From: a virus
Lineage: Duplodnaviria > Caudoviricetes
DNA length: 64,000 bases
Virus record (IMG/VR): IMGVR_UViG_3300017909_003066
Span: 1 to 64,000 of that record
Reading direction: 5' to 3' (one strand)
The notes below the pieces were generated by a model that made no database searches, was not told where the DNA came from, and saw only the letters and a program-made list of their open reading frames with translations. Positions within the stretch are counted from its first letter, which is position 1, and the number at the start of each line of letters is the position of its first letter. Position numbers and translations under genes: made by a program. Below are positions 4,389-18,230 of the stretch, piece after piece.

Positions 4389-6636
4389 TTTCTGTTTCCT
4401 TTCGGTCTGGCATGAACTCAGTTATTTCTAATTTTATTTCTTCACCCTCTAAGTCAACAGTAACTTGGCCGCCATTAACTAGTCGACCAAATAACACTTC
4501 ACGTGACATTGGCTTTTTAATCTTATCGTCAATTACACGCATAAGTGGTCTAGCACCCATTTTCTTGTTAAATCCTTTCTTAACAAGAAACTGTTTTACT
4601 TTATCAGTAAGTGTGATTAAAATACCTTTGTCAGATATTAAATCATTTACTTCTTTAATAAATTTGTCAATAATCAATAGCATTGTAGATTTTTCTAGTT
4701 TATCAAACTTAATTGTACCATCTAATCTATTTCTAAATTCAGGTGCAAAGAAGTCATTGACTGCTATATCATCTTCTCCACTACGATCTATATCTCCAAA
4801 CCCAATACCGTTTTTCTCCATTTCTCTTGCTCCTAAGTTTGAAGTCATAATCAATATTGCATTTCTGGCATCTGCTTTTTTACCATTTGATCCTGTAACA
4901 AATCCATTGTCCATTAATCCTAGTAATATATTTGCAACATCTTTATGTGCTTTTTCAATTTCATCTAAAAGCAACAAACAGTTTGGATTTTCTTGTAGTT
5001 TTGTAATTAGTTGTCCAGCATCTTCTTCATACCCAACATAACCTGGAGGCGCACCAATAAATTTTGCTACTGAATGTTTCTCTTGGAACTCACTCATATC
5101 AAAACGCACAAGTTCCACACCCATTTCTTTTGCTAATACTTTTGCAGTTTCTGTCTTACCACAACCTGTAGGACCTACAAACAAGAATGATCCAACGGGT
5201 TTGTTAAGTGATTTTAATCCTGCTTGAGCAATAAAAATTTTATCAAGTAGTTGGTCAATTGCTTCATCTTGTCCAAATACTTTTTGTTTCATTCCACCTT
5301 CTAAATCTTTTAGTGTTTCAGTTTCTTTAGCCGCAATTTGTTCTAATGGAAGATTAGTCATTTTACTTACTTCAAATACAACTTCTTCATGACTCACAAT
5401 GCCATTGGTTTGGTCTTTGACTTTAAATCTAGCACCTGCACGATCAATAATATCAATTGCTTTATCAGGAAGTTTTTTATCTGCCATATATTTTTCTGAA
5501 TATTTCACTGCATCTTCTATTGCTTTGTCAGTGATTTTTACACCGTGATGTTCTTCATAGTATTTTTTCAAACCATGTAGTATGTCAATAGTTACTTCTG
5601 GAGTAGGTTCGTCAACAGTAACACGTTGGAATCTACGCATTAATGCACGATCTTTTTCAAAATGTTTTCTGTACTCTTCCCATGTAGTAGATGCTACAAC
5701 TTTGATAGTTCCTTTACCTAAAGCAGGCTTTAACATATTTGCCATATCGTTGCTTTGACCTTGTCCTCCTGCACCAGCACCATTCATCATGTGTGCTTCA
5801 TCAATAAACAATATTGCTTTTTCTTTTTTCTCTAGTGCATGTATAACCATTTTTAATCGTTCTTCAAAGTCACCTCTGAACTTACTACCTGCCACTAATG
5901 CTCCTATATCTAAAGAATAAACTGTGCTACCTTTAATAAACTCTGGTACATTATCATTTGCAATTTCAACTGCAAGTCCTTCAGCGATAGCAGTTTTTCC
6001 TACGCCAGGATCACCAACCAACATTACGTTTGCTTTTTGTCTACGTGCAAGGATAAGCACAGTTTCTTCTATTTCATTAGCACGACCAATCACAGGATCA
6101 ATCTTGCCACGTTTTGCTTTAACGGAAAGGTTTGAACAGAACGAAGATATAATTTTTTCTAATTGTGTAGCATTGTAAGTTTCACTTGCCGCTTCACCTA
6201 CTATTTGTTCTGCTTCAATAAAGTTACTAAATTTTTCTGTGTCAATTCCATACTTACGCATTACATAAGATGCAAATGATTTCTTCTCTTTAAGCATAGA
6301 TAAAAACACATCTGTAGGTTCAATAGTAGTTCTACCATGAAACAGTGTTTGTGTAAATGCTCTATTAAGCATTCTTTCCATTGCTTGAGTCTTTTTTGGT
6401 CTGCCTTTAAAGTTTTTATCTATAATGTCTTGTAGTTTGTTTCCAATAAATTCTGTAAGTTCTTTTTTAATTGCAGTTGTATCAGCACCAAAATCTTCTA
6501 GTGTTTTACAAAATTGTTCATCACATACCATAGCCATAGCAAAGTGTTCTACAGTTACGTATTCGTGTCTTGCTGTCTGCGCCTGCGTAATAGCAGATTC
6601 AAAAATTCCTTCTAATTGTTCGTTAGGTTCTAGCAT
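4366..6636 (-). CDS. clpA: ATP-dependent Clp protease ATP-binding subunit ClpA
   Basis: Clp N-domain (HEYVTVEH), two AAA+ modules (GDPGVGKT/LFIDEAH; GPTGCGKT/LLLDEIEKAH), IGF ClpP-docking loop, no ClpB middle domain, 756 aa. Confidence 0.93.
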   Translation of the reverse strand: MLEPNEQLEGIFESAITQAQTARHEYVTVEHFAMAMVCDEQFCKTLEDFGADTTAIKKELTEFIGNKLQDIIDKNFKGRPKKTQAMERMLNRAFTQTLFHGRTTIEPTDVFLSMLKEKKSFASYVMRKYGIDTEKFSNFIEAEQIVGEAASETYNATQLEKIISSFCSNLSVKAKRGKIDPVIGRANEIEETVLILARRQKANVMLVGDPGVGKTAIAEGLAVEIANDNVPEFIKGSTVYSLDIGALVAGSKFRGDFEERLKMVIHALEKKEKAILFIDEAHMMNGAGAGGQGQSNDMANMLKPALGKGTIKVVASTTWEEYRKHFEKDRALMRRFQRVTVDEPTPEVTIDILHGLKKYYEEHHGVKITDKAIEDAVKYSEKYMADKKLPDKAIDIIDRAGARFKVKDQTNGIVSHEEVVFEVSKMTNLPLEQIAAKETETLKDLEGGMKQKVFGQDEAIDQLLDKIFIAQAGLKSLNKPVGSFLFVGPTGCGKTETAKVLAKEMGVELVRFDMSEFQEKHSVAKFIGAPPGYVGYEEDAGQLITKLQENPNCLLLLDEIEKAHKDVANILLGLMDNGFVTGSNGKKADARNAILIMTSNLGAREMEKNGIGFGDIDRSGEDDIAVNDFFAPEFRNRLDGTIKFDKLEKSTMLLIIDKFIKEVNDLISDKGILITLTDKVKQFLVKKGFNKKMGARPLMRVIDDKIKKPMSREVLFGRLVNGGQVTVDLEGEEIKLEITEFMPDRKETENESMSHE

Positions 6637-7144
6637 TTTGTAATTCCCTTTTTTTGATTTTGTCTGCTCTTTTAACAGCCATGTTCCATTTTAAACTTGA
6701 AACTCTATCTTTGTATACAATACCATTTAAATGATCACATTCGTGTAGATAACATCTAGCATCATAACCTTCAATTCTACCTACTTGTTTTTCGCCATTC
6801 TCATCTAAAAATTCTGCAACAATCCAACTAGGTCTGTTTATTTTTACAAATATACCTGGGAAACTTAAACATCCTTCCCAATCAAGTAACATATCTGGAC
6901 TTGCTTCTAACACCACAGGATTTATAAAGATCTGTGCTTTGTCTTTGTATTGACTACTACCCATTGTAAATGCGGCCGTTCTAATGTCAACTTGCGGTGC
7001 ACTTAAACCAACACCATTACCAGCAAACATTGAATCCAGCATTTCTTCTTTTAGTTCTTTAGGATCTTTGATTGGTTTTTCAAAATCAAATCTAGGCATT
7101 TGTTCGTCTAAAATTTTTGCTGGGTATTTTACAATTTCTAACAT
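6623..7144 (-). CDS. def: Peptide deformylase
   Basis: GVGLSAPQV, EGCLS and HECDH motifs. Confidence 0.96.
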   Translation of the reverse strand: MLEIVKYPAKILDEQMPRFDFEKPIKDPKELKEEMLDSMFAGNGVGLSAPQVDIRTAAFTMGSSQYKDKAQIFINPVVLEASPDMLLDWEGCLSFPGIFVKINRPSWIVAEFLDENGEKQVGRIEGYDARCYLHECDHLNGIVYKDRVSSLKWNMAVKRADKIKKRELQNART

Positions 7145-13240: not shown

Positions 13241-14170
13241 TTACTCCTTAGTTAAACGTGCTAACTTGACAAGTGTAGCACTCATGTTAATTTCAGGATC
13301 AGCAACAAATGAATGATCTACTAATCCTTGTTTAATAATTAAAATTGCTTGGTCTTGTTTATCTTCGTCCGTAGTAAACACTTCCAAGTTATCATACATC
13401 CAACGGAATATATCTTCCATTTCTTCAGGCCTTGCCTGTGTACAAATTAGTTTACGTGCTTCTGTAATTTTGCCTGCTTTAAATAGTTCTACCATATCTA
13501 CTTTGTAATCGCTTTGTCCTGTATCGCCTTTTGCAGGAGGAGTAAGTTTACCAGATGTGCTATTCATTTGACACATATTAATACACTTACGCATGTCTGG
13601 ATATGTTGCTTTTACAAAAGTATCTAATACATCTAAATCTGGCTCAACACCTTCTTCTAAAAGAATAGTTGCTATACGAGCCGTGAATTCTGTTTGATCA
13701 ACATTTGTAATATGAAAACCTTGACATCTTGAATGTAGTGCTGGAATAATTCTGTTAGGATAGTTACAAGTTAAAATAAATCTACTAGTAGTATGATATT
13801 CCTCCATCACACCACGTAATGCCGCCTGTGCATTTGGCGACAAATAATCTGCCTCATCAAGCAGTACAACCTTAAAGTCACCAAACGGAATCATTTGCAC
13901 AAAGTTTACAATTTTATCTCTTACATCTTCAACACTGTTTGTTCTACTTGCATTTATTTCAAGTACATCATATTCAGTAACTTCAAGTTCATTTAGTAAA
14001 ACTTTTGCAAGTGTTGTCTTACCAATACCTGCATGTCCACTAAAAAGTAAGTGTGGGATACTTTTATCTTTTACCCAACCGTTAACTTGATCCCTTTGTG
14101 CGTCATCACGAAACACATAATCTTTTACAGTTTGTGGACGATATTTTTCTACCCAAAGTTCTTTAGCCAT
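13241..14170 (-). CDS. Sliding-clamp loader ATPase subunit (T4 gp44/RFC small subunit-like)
   Basis: LWVEKYRP, GHAGIGKTT, LDEADYL, SRC motifs. Confidence 0.93.
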   Translation of the reverse strand: MAKELWVEKYRPQTVKDYVFRDDAQRDQVNGWVKDKSIPHLLFSGHAGIGKTTLAKVLLNELEVTEYDVLEINASRTNSVEDVRDKIVNFVQMIPFGDFKVVLLDEADYLSPNAQAALRGVMEEYHTTSRFILTCNYPNRIIPALHSRCQGFHITNVDQTEFTARIATILLEEGVEPDLDVLDTFVKATYPDMRKCINMCQMNSTSGKLTPPAKGDTGQSDYKVDMVELFKAGKITEARKLICTQARPEEMEDIFRWMYDNLEVFTTDEDKQDQAILIIKQGLVDHSFVADPEINMSATLVKLARLTKE

Positions 14171-14576
14171 TTTGTTCTATCCTCTTTCGTAATCCAGTTG
14201 TACTAAATGAGTGTTGTCGCTTATTATAGTATATTTCTATGCCTTTGTCAACACATAATTGTTTGCCTGTAAAGTCATTTTGCCTATATTCTTCTCCTAC
14301 AAAACGAATATTGATATCATATGTTAGCAGTATATCAATTAAGTCTTTTTCTGTTTCATAAGGTATAATTTCATCTATATACTTACAACCTTCAAGTTGT
14401 ACGTATCTTTCAAATACACTTTGGATTGGTTTATTTTTTTCTGGTCTATCAATAGTTGGGTCTGTTTGTAAACCTACCATTAGATAATCGCAGTTTGATT
14501 TTGCTTCTTTCAACATAGCAACATGTCCACTATGGAACAAATCAAATGCTGAAAAAGTTATTCCTCTTTTATTCAC
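14163..14576 (-). CDS. Cytidylyltransferase (TagD/glycerol-3-phosphate CT-like)
   Basis: FDLFHSGH (HxGH) and FSTTGLR motifs. Confidence 0.85.
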   Translation of the reverse strand: MNKRGITFSAFDLFHSGHVAMLKEAKSNCDYLMVGLQTDPTIDRPEKNKPIQSVFERYVQLEGCKYIDEIIPYETEKDLIDILLTYDINIRFVGEEYRQNDFTGKQLCVDKGIEIYYNKRQHSFSTTGLRKRIEQNG

Positions 14577-14805
14577 TTATTATCCGCCTGTAAATTTTAT
14601 GTAGCACGTAAAACCAAACTCCATTAATACAAGGTTCTACTAATGCATTTAGGGCCGCCAAATCAAGTGTTGTCCCTGTAATAAAATATGTAGTAGCCAT
14701 TGCAATAATGATATGCCCAAAAGTATATATTACCGCAAGTGTGACGGATGAAGTTTTTAGAATTGATTTGGTCGAAGCAAAAATGCCTCTAGTGAATTCA
14801 GTCAT
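14569..14805 (-). CDS. Small membrane protein (DUF2061-like)
   Basis: Two TMs ending in 'EP..N.VWFYVLH'. Confidence 0.55.
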   Translation of the reverse strand: MTEFTRGIFASTKSILKTSSVTLAVIYTFGHIIIAMATTYFITGTTLDLAALNALVEPCINGVWFYVLHKIYRRIISE

Positions 14806-14811
14806 ACTAAT

Positions 14812-14840
14812 ATAATACTGTTATGTAATGTCTTTGTCAA
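14812..14840 (-). promoter_or_regulatory. Sigma70-type promoter (leaderless)
   Basis: TTGACA-N17-TATTAT, 6 nt before ATG 14805. Confidence 0.8.
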
Positions 14841-14848
14841 GTAAATTC

Positions 14849-15883
14849 TTACTTGTTTTTACCGTTTTGTGGTTTTGCTGGCAAAAGTACATCTTTAAAT
14901 TGCTTGTAGGCATTTTCCCAACTCCAAATCAAACTAGATTTGTAAACTTTTTCTCTATCCAAATGCAGTGCTTGATTAACTGCTAGAGTAAGATTGTTTT
15001 CCATGTGTCCGTTAATACCATCTTTGACTACATCAATTGGTCCTGGTACTGGATATCCTGCTACAGGTGTTCCACAAGCCATTGCCTCAATTTGCACTAC
15101 GCCAAATGTATCATTCTTACTTGGAAATACAAATACATCTGCTTGTTGATAATATTGTGCCAAATCATGTCCTTTTCTTTTACCTGCGAAAATAACATCA
15201 GGATATTTCTTTTTTAGTGTTTTAAGATAAGGCCCGTCACCTACAAGTATTTTTTCTGTGTTAGGTATCTTTAATTCACAAAAATCGTCTAGTCCTTTTT
15301 CGTGACTTATACGACTTACACATAATAGTTTTTTCTTTTGATTAGGTTTTCTATTAGGATCAGGTTTGAAGTACTCCCTATCAACACCTCTTGTCCAAGC
15401 AATTATTTTTTGTTTGAATCCTTTTTCTTTTAGGATGTTTACCATAGTTTCTGTTGTTGTCATGATATGGGTGCAGTCATTGTACCTTAGTCTCATCCAA
15501 TGCCACCCCCAATCTATGCTAACAAAGGGATATCTTGATTTAACAAATTCTGGAAACAGTGTGTGTAGGCTTGTTGAAAATGGAATATTCAAACGTCTAC
15601 ATGTACGCACAAACATAATTCCTAAAGGACCTTCTGGAGTCGCAATATGAATATGATCCCATATATGTTTCTTGAGATGCTTTCTTACTGTCCAAGGTAA
15701 TGCAAGTGCAAGGTCTATTTCTTTATATCCAGGCATAGGAATACGCAATCTAAATCGTCTTGGGTGAATAACAGTTATTTTGTCTCCATGTTTTATTGCA
15801 TTCTTGTGAAGTTGATCCAGTGTGGTTACTACTCCGTTAGTTTGCGGATGCCAAGCATCTGTCACTAATAAAATCTTTGCCAT
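14849..15883 (-). CDS. agt: GT4 glycosyltransferase, Agt-like diacylglycerol glycosyl/glucuronosyltransferase
   Basis: ILLVTDAWHPQTNGVV, HIATPEGPLG, FSTSLHTLFPE, WTRGVD, VFVFPSKNDTFGVVQIEAMACGTPV; lies next to plcP. Confidence 0.78.
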   Translation of the reverse strand: MAKILLVTDAWHPQTNGVVTTLDQLHKNAIKHGDKITVIHPRRFRLRIPMPGYKEIDLALALPWTVRKHLKKHIWDHIHIATPEGPLGIMFVRTCRRLNIPFSTSLHTLFPEFVKSRYPFVSIDWGWHWMRLRYNDCTHIMTTTETMVNILKEKGFKQKIIAWTRGVDREYFKPDPNRKPNQKKKLLCVSRISHEKGLDDFCELKIPNTEKILVGDGPYLKTLKKKYPDVIFAGKRKGHDLAQYYQQADVFVFPSKNDTFGVVQIEAMACGTPVAGYPVPGPIDVVKDGINGHMENNLTLAVNQALHLDREKVYKSSLIWSWENAYKQFKDVLLPAKPQNGKNK

Positions 15884-16113
15884 TATTTTCCTGCGTCCTT
15901 AAATTTCTGTATAGGGTTTTTTAACAGTCTTCCTATGACTCTGTAGACAAACACTGCTATGATTGGAATTATGATGTTAGGAATTTTCCATTGGCTTGGC
16001 ACATCGAATGAATAGAAGATTGCAACAGAAACAAACACAGAACCAAATGCAACAGTAAAATCAATTATTAGTGCTTTCAGTATCAGTACTAATTGAATAA
16101 TGTATCGTTTCAA
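15883..16113 (-). CDS. Small two-TM membrane protein between plcP and agt
   Basis: 3' part of ORF-track 15883..16224; probable TTG start at 16113 (MKRYIIQ...), stop overlaps the agt ATG. Confidence 0.5.
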   Translation of the reverse strand: MKRYIIQLVLILKALIIDFTVAFGSVFVSVAIFYSFDVPSQWKIPNIIIPIIAVFVYRVIGRLLKNPIQKFKDAGK

Positions 16114-16819
16114 ACTGGCCAGGATCTTTTTCAACCACTGCGGTGCACGACTCCACCCAGTCTCCAGTATTGATATAATGTATTCCATGTAATTCCTTAT
16201 CTGCTGGGGTGTGTATATGTCCACAAATTACTCCATCAAACCCCTTTTGATGACAGTGTAAAGCAACAGTTTCTTCAAACTTAAGAATAAAGTTTAAAGC
16301 CTGTTTGGTTTGTGCTTTGAGGTATTTACTCAAACTCCAATAGTTCATACCTAAAATCTTTCTAACAGCATTGAACTTGACATTGACCCATATGAGAAAG
16401 TTGTAGAGATTGTCACCAAACAGCATTAACCATTTACTGTTCTTCATTACCTTGTCAAACGCATCACCGTGTATCACCAAGTATTTCTTATTATTGGTAA
16501 CATAGGTATATTTGTTCATTATTTTGATAGCACCAAATGAGATGTCAAATGGTAAAAACTTGCGTAGGTATTCGTCGTGGTTACCAAGTATGTAATAAAC
16601 CTTTGCACCACGTTTCGCGGCTGTTAGTAACCTACGTATTACGTTTGCATGATTCTGTGGGAAGTACCAACGTTTGCTTAGACGCCAACCATCTATGATG
16701 TCGCCTACCAAAAATATATTGTCTGCGGTGTTATGTTTTAGAAAGTCACATAGAGCATCTGCTTGACAGCCTCTAGTACCTAAGTGTATATCTGAAATAA
16801 AAATACTTTTATAATGCAC
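16061..16819 (-). CDS. plcP: PlcP-type phospholipase C (metallophosphoesterase, LpxH2-like)
   Basis: FISDIHLG, LVGDIIDGW, YILGNHDE, IHGDAFD, YWSLSKYLK, GVICGHIH, YINTGDWVESCTA match the PlcP/SMc00171 subfamily pattern. Confidence 0.82.
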   Translation of the reverse strand: MHYKSIFISDIHLGTRGCQADALCDFLKHNTADNIFLVGDIIDGWRLSKRWYFPQNHANVIRRLLTAAKRGAKVYYILGNHDEYLRKFLPFDISFGAIKIMNKYTYVTNNKKYLVIHGDAFDKVMKNSKWLMLFGDNLYNFLIWVNVKFNAVRKILGMNYWSLSKYLKAQTKQALNFILKFEETVALHCHQKGFDGVICGHIHTPADKELHGIHYINTGDWVESCTAVVEKDPGQFETIHYSISTDTESTNN

Positions 16820-16854
16820 AACACTATTTAAGTAATTTTTTATTAAAAATCTAT

Positions 16855-16872
16855 TTGTAATAAAATTGTAAC
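16855..16872 (+). promoter_or_regulatory. Pho-box-like direct repeat upstream of plcP
   Basis: TTGTAAT-AAAA-TTGTAAC, 11-bp period, 14/18 to CTGTCATAAAACTGTCAC; orientation opposite to plcP. Confidence 0.4.
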
Positions 16873-16879
16873 ATAATAA

Positions 16880-17443
16880 TTATTTTGTAATAACACTATA
16901 AATTTCTTTCCAATCTTTTGCATTTACAACCTTAGGGTTTGCAAAATCTTTATTATAATGATGTTCAATAAGAATAGGTTTTAGATTTGCTCTTAAACCT
17001 GCAAGACAATTTTTTGGTTTATCTTCAATCCACCACATGTCTTTATCATATGTTTTTAAAATATCGTCTTTGTCTGCACCTGTATCTAAACAGATTACAT
17101 TTACAAAGGCGTCACCAAAATGTTTTTTTAGATTCTGTTTTCTCAATTCTACTGCGTATTTGTCTGTTGCCATGCTTGTTATCACTTCAAACTTATGTCC
17201 TTCAGCAACTAATTTTTTAACATATTCTACACTACCATCGATAGGCTCAAGAAATCCCATCCATGCACTTGTATTGAATTGTTCAACAACTCTATCACAT
17301 GCTTTTTTACTAATGAAACCAAACTTTTTATACTGATCGTATGTGTTGGTGTTTTGAACTGAATAGCCTTTGCCGACCATCCATTCTTCGAATGCCTTCT
17401 CCCAATTAAGAAGTACGCCGTCTACGTCTGTTAAGATGATCAT
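16880..17443 (-). CDS. HAD-family phosphatase (5'(3')-deoxyribonucleotidase-like)
   Basis: DVDGVL motif I, ITS, WIEDK. Confidence 0.85.
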   Translation of the reverse strand: MIILTDVDGVLLNWEKAFEEWMVGKGYSVQNTNTYDQYKKFGFISKKACDRVVEQFNTSAWMGFLEPIDGSVEYVKKLVAEGHKFEVITSMATDKYAVELRKQNLKKHFGDAFVNVICLDTGADKDDILKTYDKDMWWIEDKPKNCLAGLRANLKPILIEHHYNKDFANPKVVNAKDWKEIYSVITK

Positions 17444-17862
17444 TATAGATCACCGTCTTTTCGATTCTCCGAATAGTGTACATCAAACTCTCCACCAGGA
17501 TATCTTGCTTTAAGTTTGTTTACATTTTCTTCTACTACTTCATTAGGATCAAGATCCAAAGCACGGCAACTATTAATCCAATACCATAAAATGTCGCCAA
17601 GTTCTCGTTTAGCATGAAACCTAGTTTCATCGTCCATTGGTTTACCTTGGAATATACATTTTTTAACAATCTCTGCAAATTCGCCTCCTTCACTTGCAAT
17701 ACCAATTGCACCTGTTAGTAACAATGCAGGATTAACCTTTTCGCTAATCTCAACCATTCTATGATGCATGTGTGCAACATTATTACTTTGTTCACTTGTT
17801 ACTTGTTCTACAAAATCTTTATACTTGTTTAAGTCTACGTTTGACACTATATCACCTATCAA
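17443..17862 (-). CDS. mazG: MazG-like NTP pyrophosphohydrolase
   Basis: GIASEGGEFAEIVKK, ELGDILWY, NVNKLKARYP. Confidence 0.9.
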   Translation of the reverse strand: MIGDIVSNVDLNKYKDFVEQVTSEQSNNVAHMHHRMVEISEKVNPALLLTGAIGIASEGGEFAEIVKKCIFQGKPMDDETRFHAKRELGDILWYWINSCRALDLDPNEVVEENVNKLKARYPGGEFDVHYSENRKDGDL

Positions 17863-18230
17863 TTTCCAATATTTACATCATCAGGTTTTTCATCTGACCA
17901 AGCAAGAATTTCATCTAAGTCAATTTTTCTCACTTCTATTTCACCTAAATCGTCGTCTTCAACGATAATACTTCTACTCCAACGACCATGAGATACTAAA
18001 ATCCAATCTCCTTCATTATAAGGATCTTTGTTTTCTTTTCCTTTTGCGTATACTTGACACCATCTAGAGTAAATGCCTCTACTAGTACCGTCGTCGTTAG
18101 TTAAGATAATCCCACCTTTAGTTTTTTGTTCACCAAAGTGCATATTGTATCCTAGTACATCTCCATGAATAGGACGTACTTTACCTTTTACGCGAGTTTT
18201 GATTTTTACAGGACCACCCATCAATTCCAT
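17859..18230 (-). CDS. groES: GroES/Cpn10-like co-chaperonin
   Basis: RPIHGDVL...EQKTKGGIIL mobile loop, V-A-G, GD-ILV, DEILA. Confidence 0.8.
   Translation of the reverse strand: MELMGGPVKIKTRVKGKVRPIHGDVLGYNMHFGEQKTKGGIILTNDDGTSRGIYSRWCQVYAKGKENKDPYNEGDWILVSHGRWSRSIIVEDDDLGEIEVRKIDLDEILAWSDEKPDDVNIGN

Follow-up and report, generated by a model that had tools for sequence, protein, structure and literature searches.

The window, that is, the whole stretch of 64,000 nucleotides that we analysed, carries on its minus strand a plcP-like gene for a metallophosphoesterase, followed by a small membrane open reading frame (ORF) and by an agt-like gene for a GT4 glycosyltransferase (Table 1). The coupled three-gene operon proposed in a preliminary description of this DNA was found in place, with all three genes on one strand and with overlapping ends: the small ORF, read from TTG 16110, overlaps the 3' end of plcP by 50 nt, and its stop codon overlaps the ATG of the GT4 gene (TAATG). 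No terminator-like site was found between positions 13900 and 18000, and plcP, the small ORF, and agt look like one transcription unit starting at a phage-typical TAAATA-N5-start element. Directly upstream of plcP lies a co-oriented gene for an NT5C-like phosphatase, which also adjoins the homologous cassette in phage contigs L011-L013; in L197 a fatty-acid desaturase gene is found there instead.

Table 1. Features of the plcP-agt cassette and its upstream neighbour.
Feature	Position	Strand	Details
plcP-like gene, PlcP-type metallophosphoesterase	16061..16819	(-)	252 aa, GTG start; Pfam Metallophos
Small two-helix membrane ORF	15883..16110	(-)	~75 aa from likeliest start, TTG 16110
agt-like gene, GT4 (GT-B fold) glycosyltransferase	14849..15883	(-)	344 aa; Pfam GT4 domains
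Intergenic leader, 60 nt	16820..16879	(-)	TAAATA and Pho-box-like repeat, read from sequence
NT5C-like HAD-family phosphatase (neighbour, outside cassette)	16880..17443	(-)	Pfam NT5C E 3.2e-11; phrog_420 E 2.2e-33

The cassette is flanked by phage genes on both sides, and its source is an uncultured marine myophage of the lytic type. Bacterial contamination of the contig was ruled out by these flanks, by phage flanks in many other contigs, and by the presence of plcP in the cultured phage Mosig. PHROG annotation of the large ORFs of the window was of little help for classifying the phage, and the closest isolates varied with the gene considered: the clamp loader pointed to PA5oct-like jumbo phages and a CHASE2 cyclase to Melnitz and HTVC008M. 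The large genome assumed at the outset has as its sole basis the CheckV completeness estimate of 31% for the 109-kb record; the nearest isolates found for one gene of the genome measure 141 to 147 kb. A phoH gene lies 2.4 kb from the cassette, and a class-3 lipase gene lies elsewhere in the same genome (99588-100310). Neither pstS nor a UDP-glucose dehydrogenase gene was found in the 109-kb record.

We then considered the identity of the phosphoesterase, which matched Pfam Metallophos with an E-value of 1.7e-14. Its set of metal-binding motifs is complete (DxH, GD, GNH[D/E], H, and GHxH), and residues D10, H12, D40, N80, H81, H117, H201, and H203 were invariant in an alignment of 41 homologues. 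Scored against the two curated NCBIfam equivalog models for LpxH, the phage protein reached only 54.5 bits with NF003743 and 40.1 bits with TIGR01854, far under the respective cut-offs of 134 and 190 bits. In the complete genomes G001, G003, and G004, a true LpxH (218 to 266 bits) is encoded by a gene separate from that of a PlcP-like paralogue, and it was the paralogue, scoring 46 to 49 bits on the LpxH models much like the phage protein, that matched the phage PlcP (46 to 51% identity). In phylogenetic trees, LpxH was set apart from the phage protein and the bacterial PlcP-like paralogues with an SH-aLRT support of 100. The sub-cut-off scores, the separate true LpxH in the same genomes, and this split ruled out an LpxH identity. 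On sequence grounds, the phage enzyme is thus PlcP-type, as initially described, a predicted intracellular phospholipase C and not an LpxH.

The nearest cellular relatives of the phage PlcP (46 to 57% identity, E-values of 1e-78 to 3e-95) belong mostly to the Alphaproteobacteria, including six Pelagibacteraceae SAGs, Rhodobacteraceae, and Rhizobium. E-values were 4e-83 for Rhodobacteraceae, about 1e-80 to 1e-82 for Pelagibacteraceae, and about 1e-78 to 1e-80 for Rhizobium, and 49 of the 61 sampled Rhizobiaceae genomes contained a match (1e-68 to 1e-86), which was a single one in all but two. In the literature, a BLASTP E-value below 1e-40 to the PlcP of MED193 has been used as the criterion for PlcP (PMC4796936); here, the orthology of both PlcP and Agt was judged by synteny together with family-level proxies, which for PlcP lie far below that value.

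An AlphaFold model of the phage PlcP (mean pLDDT of 87.7) displayed an LpxH-like core with a helical cap formed by residues 120 to 191, and its best match among solved structures (PDB) was LpxH. Together with the source annotations, which name PlcP homologues "UDP-2,3-diacylglucosamine pyrophosphatase LpxH," this match would suit an LpxH-like lipid A enzyme working alongside a glycosyltransferase of the lipopolysaccharide (LPS) core or O-antigen. Automatic annotation and virome surveys do file such genes under this heading, and one virome study places lpxH among the LPS auxiliary metabolic genes (AMGs) of surface waters (PMC10653327). Such a function is hardly credible given the LpxH scores, the remoteness of true LpxH as a paralogue, and the fully supported split in the trees, and the partner enzyme also speaks against it, as the GT4 falls among the plcP-linked enzymes and, of the family models, those for membrane-glycolipid synthases match it best.

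The GT4 contains the Pfam domains Glycos_transf_1 (E = 1.1e-24) and Glyco_transf_4 (E = 1.5e-17). Among NCBIfam models, its three best matches and two further ones were membrane-glycolipid synthases, all of them under cut-off. Its structural model (pLDDT of 92.9) adopts a GT-B fold, with the GT4 enzymes BshA, MshA, and PimA as best PDB matches. Of the 80 nearest bacterial loci, 62, including six from Pelagibacteraceae, have a homologue of this GT4 immediately after plcP. This arrangement corresponds to the published "type 2" plcP-agt operon, and the plcP-adjacent bacterial enzymes are 37 to 43% identical to the phage GT4 over the full length. In five whole genomes, the best match of the phage GT4 had an E-value of 6e-61 to 6e-77 and was the plcP-adjacent glycosyltransferase wherever one was present, whereas ordinary GT4s of the same five genomes reached 2e-11 at best, leaving a gap of at least 50 orders of E-value. 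Rhizobium harbors a non-adjacent copy of the homologue (42% identity). These comparisons place the phage GT4, at the level of sequence, as an orthologue of the plcP-linked Agt group, which includes the characterised Agt enzymes of SAR11 and Agrobacterium; it is predicted to be a diacylglycerol glucosyl- or glucuronosyltransferase. The initial Agt-like assignment was thus upheld.

The small 2-TM gene described between plcP and agt is also present, as an ORF whose product has two hydrophobic segments and, at the C terminus, a basic tail. Its start is uncertain: the conserved frame, which ends at 15883, stays open upstream as far as 16224, and we chose TTG 16110, giving 75 aa, by comparison with homologues of 76 to 80 aa. 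The ORF is kept in L011-L013, L197, and L200 and in 20 metagenome clusters at 78 to 92% identity. Searches of Pfam, NCBIfam, and PHROG returned zero matches for it, and it was absent from the 80 IMG/VR loci and 80 bacterial loci screened. Neither L015 nor L018 has it between the two genes, and in both plcP overlaps agt directly. Since most viral cassettes do not contain the ORF, it is not essential, and we regard the 75-aa membrane protein as a lineage-specific accessory, which, as a guess, might help to place the enzymes at the membrane.

Relatives of the phage PlcP were detected on at least 551 IMG/VR contigs. Among the best 80 IMG/VR loci, plcP is adjoined by an Agt-like GT4 in 38 and by a GT2 in 31, so that a glycosyltransferase of either type directly follows it in 69, and the plcP-GT4 pair is kept in phages across varied gene contexts. 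As the adjacency recurs in many independent phage contigs and in the bacterial loci described above, the pairing of metallophosphoesterase and GT4 is not due to chance. In L200, L128, L137, L196, and L118, the cassette abuts a short UDP-glucose-dehydrogenase-like gene, which in L018 is found about 3 kb upstream; in these relatives, the gene may link the cassette to sugar supply. In the trees, the viral PlcP sequences, with two bacterial ones nested among them, formed one clade (SH-aLRT of 95), and the viral Agt sequences formed another (SH-aLRT of 100). The cassette was therefore not copied recently from a host operon, and a recent capture from a SAR11 host is unsupported. Support for joining the viral PlcP clade to Pelagibacteraceae was only 18, and the donor thus cannot be named. 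In line with the preliminary description, which knew of no characterisation of this pair in a virus, our literature search found no paper describing a viral PlcP-Agt cassette.

This recurrence also bears on whether the phosphoesterase might simply degrade the membrane, for lysis or to supply fatty acids or diacylglycerol for energy, while the GT4 acts elsewhere, for instance on phage DNA or on a protein. The class-3 lipases, one encoded in this genome and one adjoining the cassette in L008, would fit such a breakdown, as would the plcP of Mosig, which has no Agt-like glycosyltransferase. We consider it very improbable, since a glycosyltransferase directly follows plcP in most of the best viral and nearest bacterial loci, the GT4 appears orthologous to the lipid-acting Agt group, and plcP is not grouped with the endolysin and spanin genes seen in the relative L011.

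We next analysed the plcP leader. The TAAATA motif noted earlier is present at 16825-16830, exactly 5 nt ahead of the plcP GTG. TAAATA-N5-start recurs with this fixed spacing throughout the genome, with 16 ATG cases on the coding strand versus 0 to 2 at the other spacings tested. The other nameable genes that it precedes are auxiliary, encoding a heme oxygenase, a Cu/Zn superoxide dismutase (SOD), an IscA-like protein, and a CHASE2 cyclase, and no identified structural gene was found among them. The leader reads CTTAAATA and fits only the last six of the eight bases of the consensus of T4-type, gp55-dependent late promoters, TATAAATA; without the first two bases, a canonical T4 late promoter was ruled out. 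The 109-kb genome contains just 7 copies of TATAAATA itself, and only one of 161 crude ORF starts is preceded by it. The element is thus real, but the phage late control that had been suggested for plcP is not supported in that form: the motif is not the T4 late consensus, and late control is unproven because the element precedes auxiliary genes and no identified structural gene.

A degenerate Pho-box-like direct repeat, TGTTACA-N4-TATTACA, with an 11-bp period lies at about 16856-16873 (-54 to -37), 25 nt from the TAAATA element. Such Pho-like patterns occurred 3 times genome-wide versus 2.2 expected, that is, at chance level. In related phages, plcP is preceded by clear CTGTAAT-N4-CTGTAAC boxes at loci L008 and L118, and L131 shows TGTAAC repeats of a similar kind. 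The leader region is conserved in L197 despite its different upstream neighbour.

Taken together, these data lead us to propose, with a probability of roughly 75%, that the cassette serves as an auxiliary metabolic operon of the phage, by which the two-step "lipid renovation" of bacteria enters the infected cell. We infer the enzymatic steps from family membership. In the first, PlcP, which has no signal peptide and would be cytoplasmic, would cut the glycerol-phosphate bond of phospholipids, yielding diacylglycerol and a soluble phospho-headgroup rather than free phosphate; host phosphatases, and possibly the phage's own, could then free the headgroup phosphate for nucleotide and DNA synthesis. 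In the second, the Agt-type GT4 would move glucose or glucuronic acid from UDP-sugars onto the diacylglycerol, giving phosphorus-free MGDG or GADG, and the bilayer would stay closed until lysis. With both enzymes coming from the phage, the pathway would be independent of host plcP and agt. By analogy with bacteria, the phage can probably free phosphorus from the host membrane during infection, and mining of membrane phosphorus with the membrane kept intact, as first suggested, would be a reasonable extension of the bacterial pathway.

The same two activities could benefit the phage by altering the membrane or the cell surface, blocking superinfection, changing grazing, or conferring tolerance to membrane-active agents. 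Lipid-remodelled bacteria are reported to meet a protist predator differently (PMC9457565); glycolipids raise the polymyxin resistance of P. aeruginosa (PMC9804370), and it has been proposed that the many glycosyltransferases of pelagimyophages alter the host surface (PMC7029224). The copy in the window, with neither a clear Pho box nor a pstS gene nearby, would also agree with such a role. We nevertheless judge an altered surface unlikely as the main benefit, in view of the related phages that carry plcP beside pstS (Mosig and L008) and behind Pho-box-like repeats, and of the targets of PlcP and Agt, which would be lipids of the inner leaflet or inner membrane and not exposed receptors. Benefits in phosphorus and at the surface can, moreover, coexist.

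Phosphorus limits virus production across much of the surface ocean. Lipid renovation would represent another strategy than uptake, in which host membrane phosphorus is recycled and the lipid replaced while the cell remains intact. Under a rough assumption about SAR11 cell size, a cell would contain about 1.5 million phospholipids, compared to about 0.3 million phosphorus atoms in a 150-kb genome, and the membrane phosphorus would thus be equivalent to about five genomes; the burst size reported for a cultured pelagimyophage is about 9 (PMC7029224). Viral genes filed as lpxH or as LPS AMGs are probably misassigned, metagenomic counts of PlcP, from which bacterial phosphorus stress is read, may contain a viral share, and marine glycolipid pools may in part reflect infection. 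More tentatively, and at somewhat less than even odds, old, virus-specific PlcP and Agt lineages may have spread among aquatic phages with a GT4 or GT2 partner and may give phosphorus-free lipids to hosts that do not have them, such as SAR11 of the HTCC1062 type. A sizeable share of the oceanic "PlcP" and viral "lpxH" signal would then represent a viral pathway. In seas poor in phosphorus, glucuronosyl and glucosyl diacylglycerol would then have a separate origin in infected cells.

Marine T4-like cyanophages and pelagiphages carry the phosphate-related auxiliary genes pstS, phoA, and phoH. Like the cassette, these are host-derived, occur in marine myophages, and bear on phosphorus supply, but they raise external phosphorus uptake or are of unknown function, whereas the cassette would recycle membrane phosphorus. 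LpxH belongs to the same superfamily as the phage PlcP and shares its calcineurin-like core and helical lipid-binding cap, but is only 17 to 19% identical to it, forms a distinct paralogue clade, and has other genomic partners.

The closest cultured parallel is Mosig_00120 of Pelagibacter phage Mosig EXVC030M, a pelagimyophage whose host, HTCC1062, is reported to have no plcP (PMC4796936). This protein, annotated as "putative UDP-2,3-diacylglucosamine hydrolase," belongs to the same viral PlcP clade, is 56% identical to the phage PlcP, and likewise has TAAATA-N5-ATG at its start codon. Mosig differs in that it contains no Agt-like GT4, in that the small ORF downstream of its plcP is unrelated, and in that its plcP diverges from pstS.

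The cassette compares most directly with the bacterial PlcP-Agt pathway, of which S. meliloti SMc00171 is a characterised example. Further characterised members are MED193_17359 of Phaeobacter sp. MED193, PB7211_983 and PB7211_960 of SAR11 HTCC7211, the Agt of A. tumefaciens, and PlcP, Agt1, and Agt2 of P. aeruginosa (PMC4796936; PMC9804370). For the "type 2" arrangement, a Phaeobacter plcP mutant was complemented by the PlcP of HTCC7211, and E. coli expressing the Agt of HTCC7211 produced MGDG and GADG (PMC4796936). Unlike the bacterial operons, the phage copy is embedded among the genes of a lytic-type myophage and belongs to viral clades of its own, its lineage adds the 75-aa membrane ORF between the two genes, and its leader contains TAAATA-N5-start and not a clear PhoB promoter. 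It nonetheless combines the same two families, with plcP ahead of agt on a single strand as in bacteria, keeps all catalytic motifs at the identities given above for both enzymes, and has phage relatives with pstS or Pho-box-like sequences as neighbours.

The window, the first 64 kb of a 109-kb IMG/VR virus record, has a G+C content of ~34% and almost all of its coding on the minus strand, and it contains the three genes that the preliminary description had read as a coupled operon: a plcP-like metallophosphoesterase, a small membrane ORF and an agt-like GT4 glycosyltransferase. All genes lie where they had been placed, and the observation is correct, since the gene order, the strand, the overlap of the small-ORF stop with the GT4 start codon (TAATG) and the lack of any terminator-like site in 13900-18000 match it. 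The sigma-70-like site that follows agt may mark the start of the next transcription unit (DUF2061, cytidylyltransferase). The cytidylyltransferase-like protein scored 65.6 bits for RfaE domain II and 62.8 bits for TagD (glycerol-3-phosphate cytidylyltransferase), both below cut-off; its gene keeps the same position in L197, a close relative whose PlcP is 96% identical to the phage protein. In L197, another lipid-modifying gene, a fatty-acid desaturase (L197:2493-3557), occupies the upstream site that the NT5C-like gene has here.

Features of the cassette region, TAAATA-preceded starts, and ugd-like genes of homologous loci (L-numbers)
Feature	Position	Strand	Remarks
MazG	17443-17862	minus	
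NT5C-like HAD phosphatase	16880-17443	minus	upstream of plcP-like gene
Gap between NT5C-like and plcP-like genes			60 nt
Metallophosphoesterase (plcP-like)	16061-16819	minus	252 aa, GTG start
Small hydrophobic ORF	ends 15883	minus	between plcP-like gene and GT4
GT4 glycosyltransferase (agt-like)	14849-15883	minus	344 aa
Sigma-70-like site, near-consensus (TTGACA-17-TATTAT, 11/12)	14812-14840	minus	inside 43-nt gap after agt
DUF2061 membrane protein	after 43-nt gap downstream of GT4	minus	
Cytidylyltransferase-like protein	14163-14576	minus	137 aa; after DUF2061 gene
Clamp-loader subunit	next after cytidylyltransferase-like gene	minus	
PhoH		opposite to cassette	
TAAATA-N5-ATG starts in window	3374, 32465, 34074, 34241, 40532, 40876, 45130, 45504, 48512, 53553, 63282	minus	
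Short ugd-like genes	L200:1289-2095; L018:2418-3233; L128:4202-4999; L137:6784-7569; L196:3175-3948		253-271 aa

Genes of the window resemble their counterparts in marine myophages that infect streamlined heterotrophs. The CHASE2 cyclase shares 54-57% identity with that of Methylophilales phage Melnitz and that of Pelagibacter phage HTVC008M, and the nearest match of the clamp loader, at 57% identity, is in PA5oct-like jumbo phages. In other contigs, T4-type genes (gp53, gp2, baseplate, gp32, spanin) surround close homologues of the cassette genes. The genome size is uncertain because CheckV rates the 109-kb record 31% complete.

The 252-aa plcP product has a calcineurin-like domain, and its metal-binding residues are all invariant. 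It was rejected as LpxH, with 54.5 and 40.1 bits on two LpxH equivalog models against cut-offs of 134 and 190. Three complete beta-/gammaproteobacterial genomes carry true LpxH (218-266 bits) and a PlcP-like paralogue (46-49 bits) at separate loci, and the phage protein matched the paralogue, not true LpxH. The nearest cellular relatives, 46-57% identical, were mostly from Alphaproteobacteria (six Pelagibacteraceae single-cell genomes, Rhodobacteraceae, Rhizobium). Of 61 genomes sampled from Rhizobiaceae, the family that includes S. meliloti with its characterised PlcP, 49 matched the phage protein (E 1e-68 to 1e-86), all but two of the 49 with a single match. Its AlphaFold model (pLDDT 87.7) shows a core like that of LpxH and, at residues 120-191, a helical insertion that is, in the model, the counterpart of the LpxH lipid-binding cap; the best PDB matches are LpxH structures, at only 17-19% identity. 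In maximum-likelihood trees, the comparison that had been proposed, LpxH was set apart from all other sequences (SH-aLRT 100). The sub-cut-off scores, the paralogue match and this split bear out the assignment to PlcP rather than LpxH. Viral copies are annotated as LpxH in source databases, and a virome survey counted lpxH among the LPS-synthesis AMGs and gave it as typical of offshore oligotrophic waters, both surface and subsurface (PMC10653327); set against the LpxH scores and the tree, an LPS function of the gene pair seems highly improbable.

The three best NCBIfam matches of the phage GT4, and two further ones, were membrane-glycolipid synthases, all below cut-off (IagA/BgsA, GlcNAc-PG synthase, MGlcDAG synthase, processive DAG glucosyltransferase), and its model (pLDDT 92.9) has a GT-B, GT4 fold. 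Of the 80 nearest bacterial plcP loci, 62 have a full-length homologue of it, 37-43% identical, directly downstream of plcP on the same strand. When whole genomes were searched, the top match was the plcP-adjacent glycosyltransferase (E 6e-61 to 6e-77; a non-adjacent copy in Rhizobium), while ordinary GT4s of the same genomes reached 2e-11 at best. This adjacency and the gap in E value uphold the description of the enzyme as Agt-like; beside them, membrane breakdown by PlcP with a GT4 acting on an unrelated target is very unlikely. In published work, a Phaeobacter plcP mutant was complemented with PlcP of HTCC7211, and Agt of HTCC7211 made MGDG and GADG in E. coli (Sebastian et al. 2016, PMC4796936).

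The small gene between them, described earlier as having two transmembrane segments, indeed encodes two hydrophobic segments, and its product ends in a basic tail. Close relatives (L011-L013, L197, L200) share its conserved core of ~60 aa, as do 20 metagenome clusters that are 78-92% identical. Gene-caller products in relatives range from 62 to 101 aa, and alignment with the 76-80-aa forms makes the TTG at 16110 the likeliest start, giving 75 aa and a 50-nt overlap with plcP. It matched no known family in Pfam, NCBIfam or PHROG and turned up in none of the 80 viral or 80 bacterial loci that were screened, for which reason we regard it as a lineage-specific accessory.

For both proteins, the nearest homologues (60-96% identity) are encoded on contigs from marine metagenomes whose gene content is that of phages; on these, plcP and agt are adjacent in several different neighbourhoods. 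PlcP relatives are encoded on at least 551 IMG/VR contigs; in the best 80 of these loci (L117-L196), the partner was an Agt-like GT4 in 38, a small GT2/GT21-like transferase in 31 and neither in 11. The GT2/GT21-like partner, a downstream gene of 236 aa, makes up another type of pairing between viral plcP and a glycosyltransferase. In the PlcP tree (189 rows), all 106 viral/metagenome sequences and two bacterial ones grouped in a single clade (SH-aLRT 95), and in the GT4 tree (127 rows), all 61 viral/metagenome GT4s formed a clade of their own (SH-aLRT 100) without the 63 bacterial Agt-like proteins. The two nested bacterial genes come from MAGs, a Pseudomonadota bin and a Hyphomonas bin (L020:5968-6786 and L021); neither has an adjoining GT4, and the L020 neighbourhood is ordinary bacterial metabolism. 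They may reflect phage-to-bacterium transfer or the source lineage; because deeper nodes are weak, the donor lineage cannot be named.

Several relatives link plcP to phosphorus acquisition genes or sugar-donor genes. In Mosig, a cultured pelagiphage, plcP (56% identical) and pstS are neighbours that diverge from each other (locus Mosig EXVC030M 4894-6910), and the intergenic region between them contains repeated TTAAC motifs with an 11-bp period. A 146-kb phage contig (L008:3925-9976) has the order pstS-pstS-plcP-GT2-ugd-like-PRPP synthetase-class 3 lipase, its ugd-like gene being short, and just before plcP a CTGTAAT-N4-CTGTAAC repeat that closely resembles the consensus of the E. coli Pho box. 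Short UDP-glucose-dehydrogenase-like genes touch the cassette in L200, L128, L137, L196 and L118 and lie ~3 kb upstream in L018; truncated relative to the full-length enzyme and without parts of it, they fit glucuronosyl-lipid synthesis and hint at UDP-glucuronate supply. Neither pstS nor ugd was found in the 109-kb record. Outside the window (99588-101299), the record carries PRPP synthetase and class-3 lipase genes side by side, their products 80 and 59% identical, respectively, to the L008 counterparts that adjoin the plcP cassette there. Selection of the same lipid chemistry for surface or membrane effects is a much less probable explanation than phosphorus supply.

TAAATA stands exactly 5 nt before the plcP GTG, as previously noted. 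On the coding strand of the record, 16 instances of TAAATA-N5-ATG were counted, whereas each of the other spacings from 0 to 12 gave 0-2 and 200 shuffles gave 2.5 on average (maximum 9); with the plcP GTG included, the element precedes 17 ORFs of at least 40 aa. It also precedes plcP in L011 (GTG), L124, L197 and Mosig. Since a Shine-Dalgarno sequence would not fit into this spacing, the mRNAs may plausibly be leaderless or nearly so. The proposed late control was not supported as stated and is no more than a possibility: the element differs from the T4 late consensus (TATAAATA), which has just 7 occurrences in the genome, and its other nameable carriers are auxiliary (heme oxygenase, Cu/Zn superoxide dismutase, IscA-like protein, CHASE2 cyclase). 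In one relative, L119, TATAAATA does precede plcP, together with a Shine-Dalgarno-like AAGAGG. A repeat resembling a Pho box, TGTTACA-N4-TATTACA, is present at -54 to -37 of plcP, 25 nt from TAAATA, and is kept in L197; such patterns occur in this genome at chance frequency (3 versus 2.2 expected).

Family membership and plcP-agt synteny of the cassette are established at the sequence level. From these we infer, with a probability of roughly 0.75, that the cassette is a phage auxiliary operon that renovates the lipids of the infected cell; the enzyme activities and their substrates, the benefit to the phage and the timing all form part of this inference. PlcP would cut phospholipids into diacylglycerol and a phospho-headgroup, and Agt would glycosylate diacylglycerol to MGDG or GADG; the phosphorus set free would feed phage nucleic-acid synthesis while the membrane stayed closed. 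The NT5C-like HAD phosphatase, which adjoins the cassette in L011-L013 as well, is a candidate headgroup phosphatase solely on account of its position.

Full-text literature searches yielded no publication that describes a viral PlcP or Agt, in agreement with the earlier statement that the pair was not known to be characterised there. HTCC1062 was reported to lack plcP (Sebastian et al., PMC4796936) whereas Mosig, which infects it, carries the gene; a phage can thus bring the first step to a host lacking it. The bacterial pathway is known, and what is new is its own viral lineages and its probable use as a phage auxiliary module. The bacterial gene order, with agt directly downstream of plcP, is the plcP-agt neighbourhood that Sebastian et al. 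2016 (PMC4796936) named 'type 2'.
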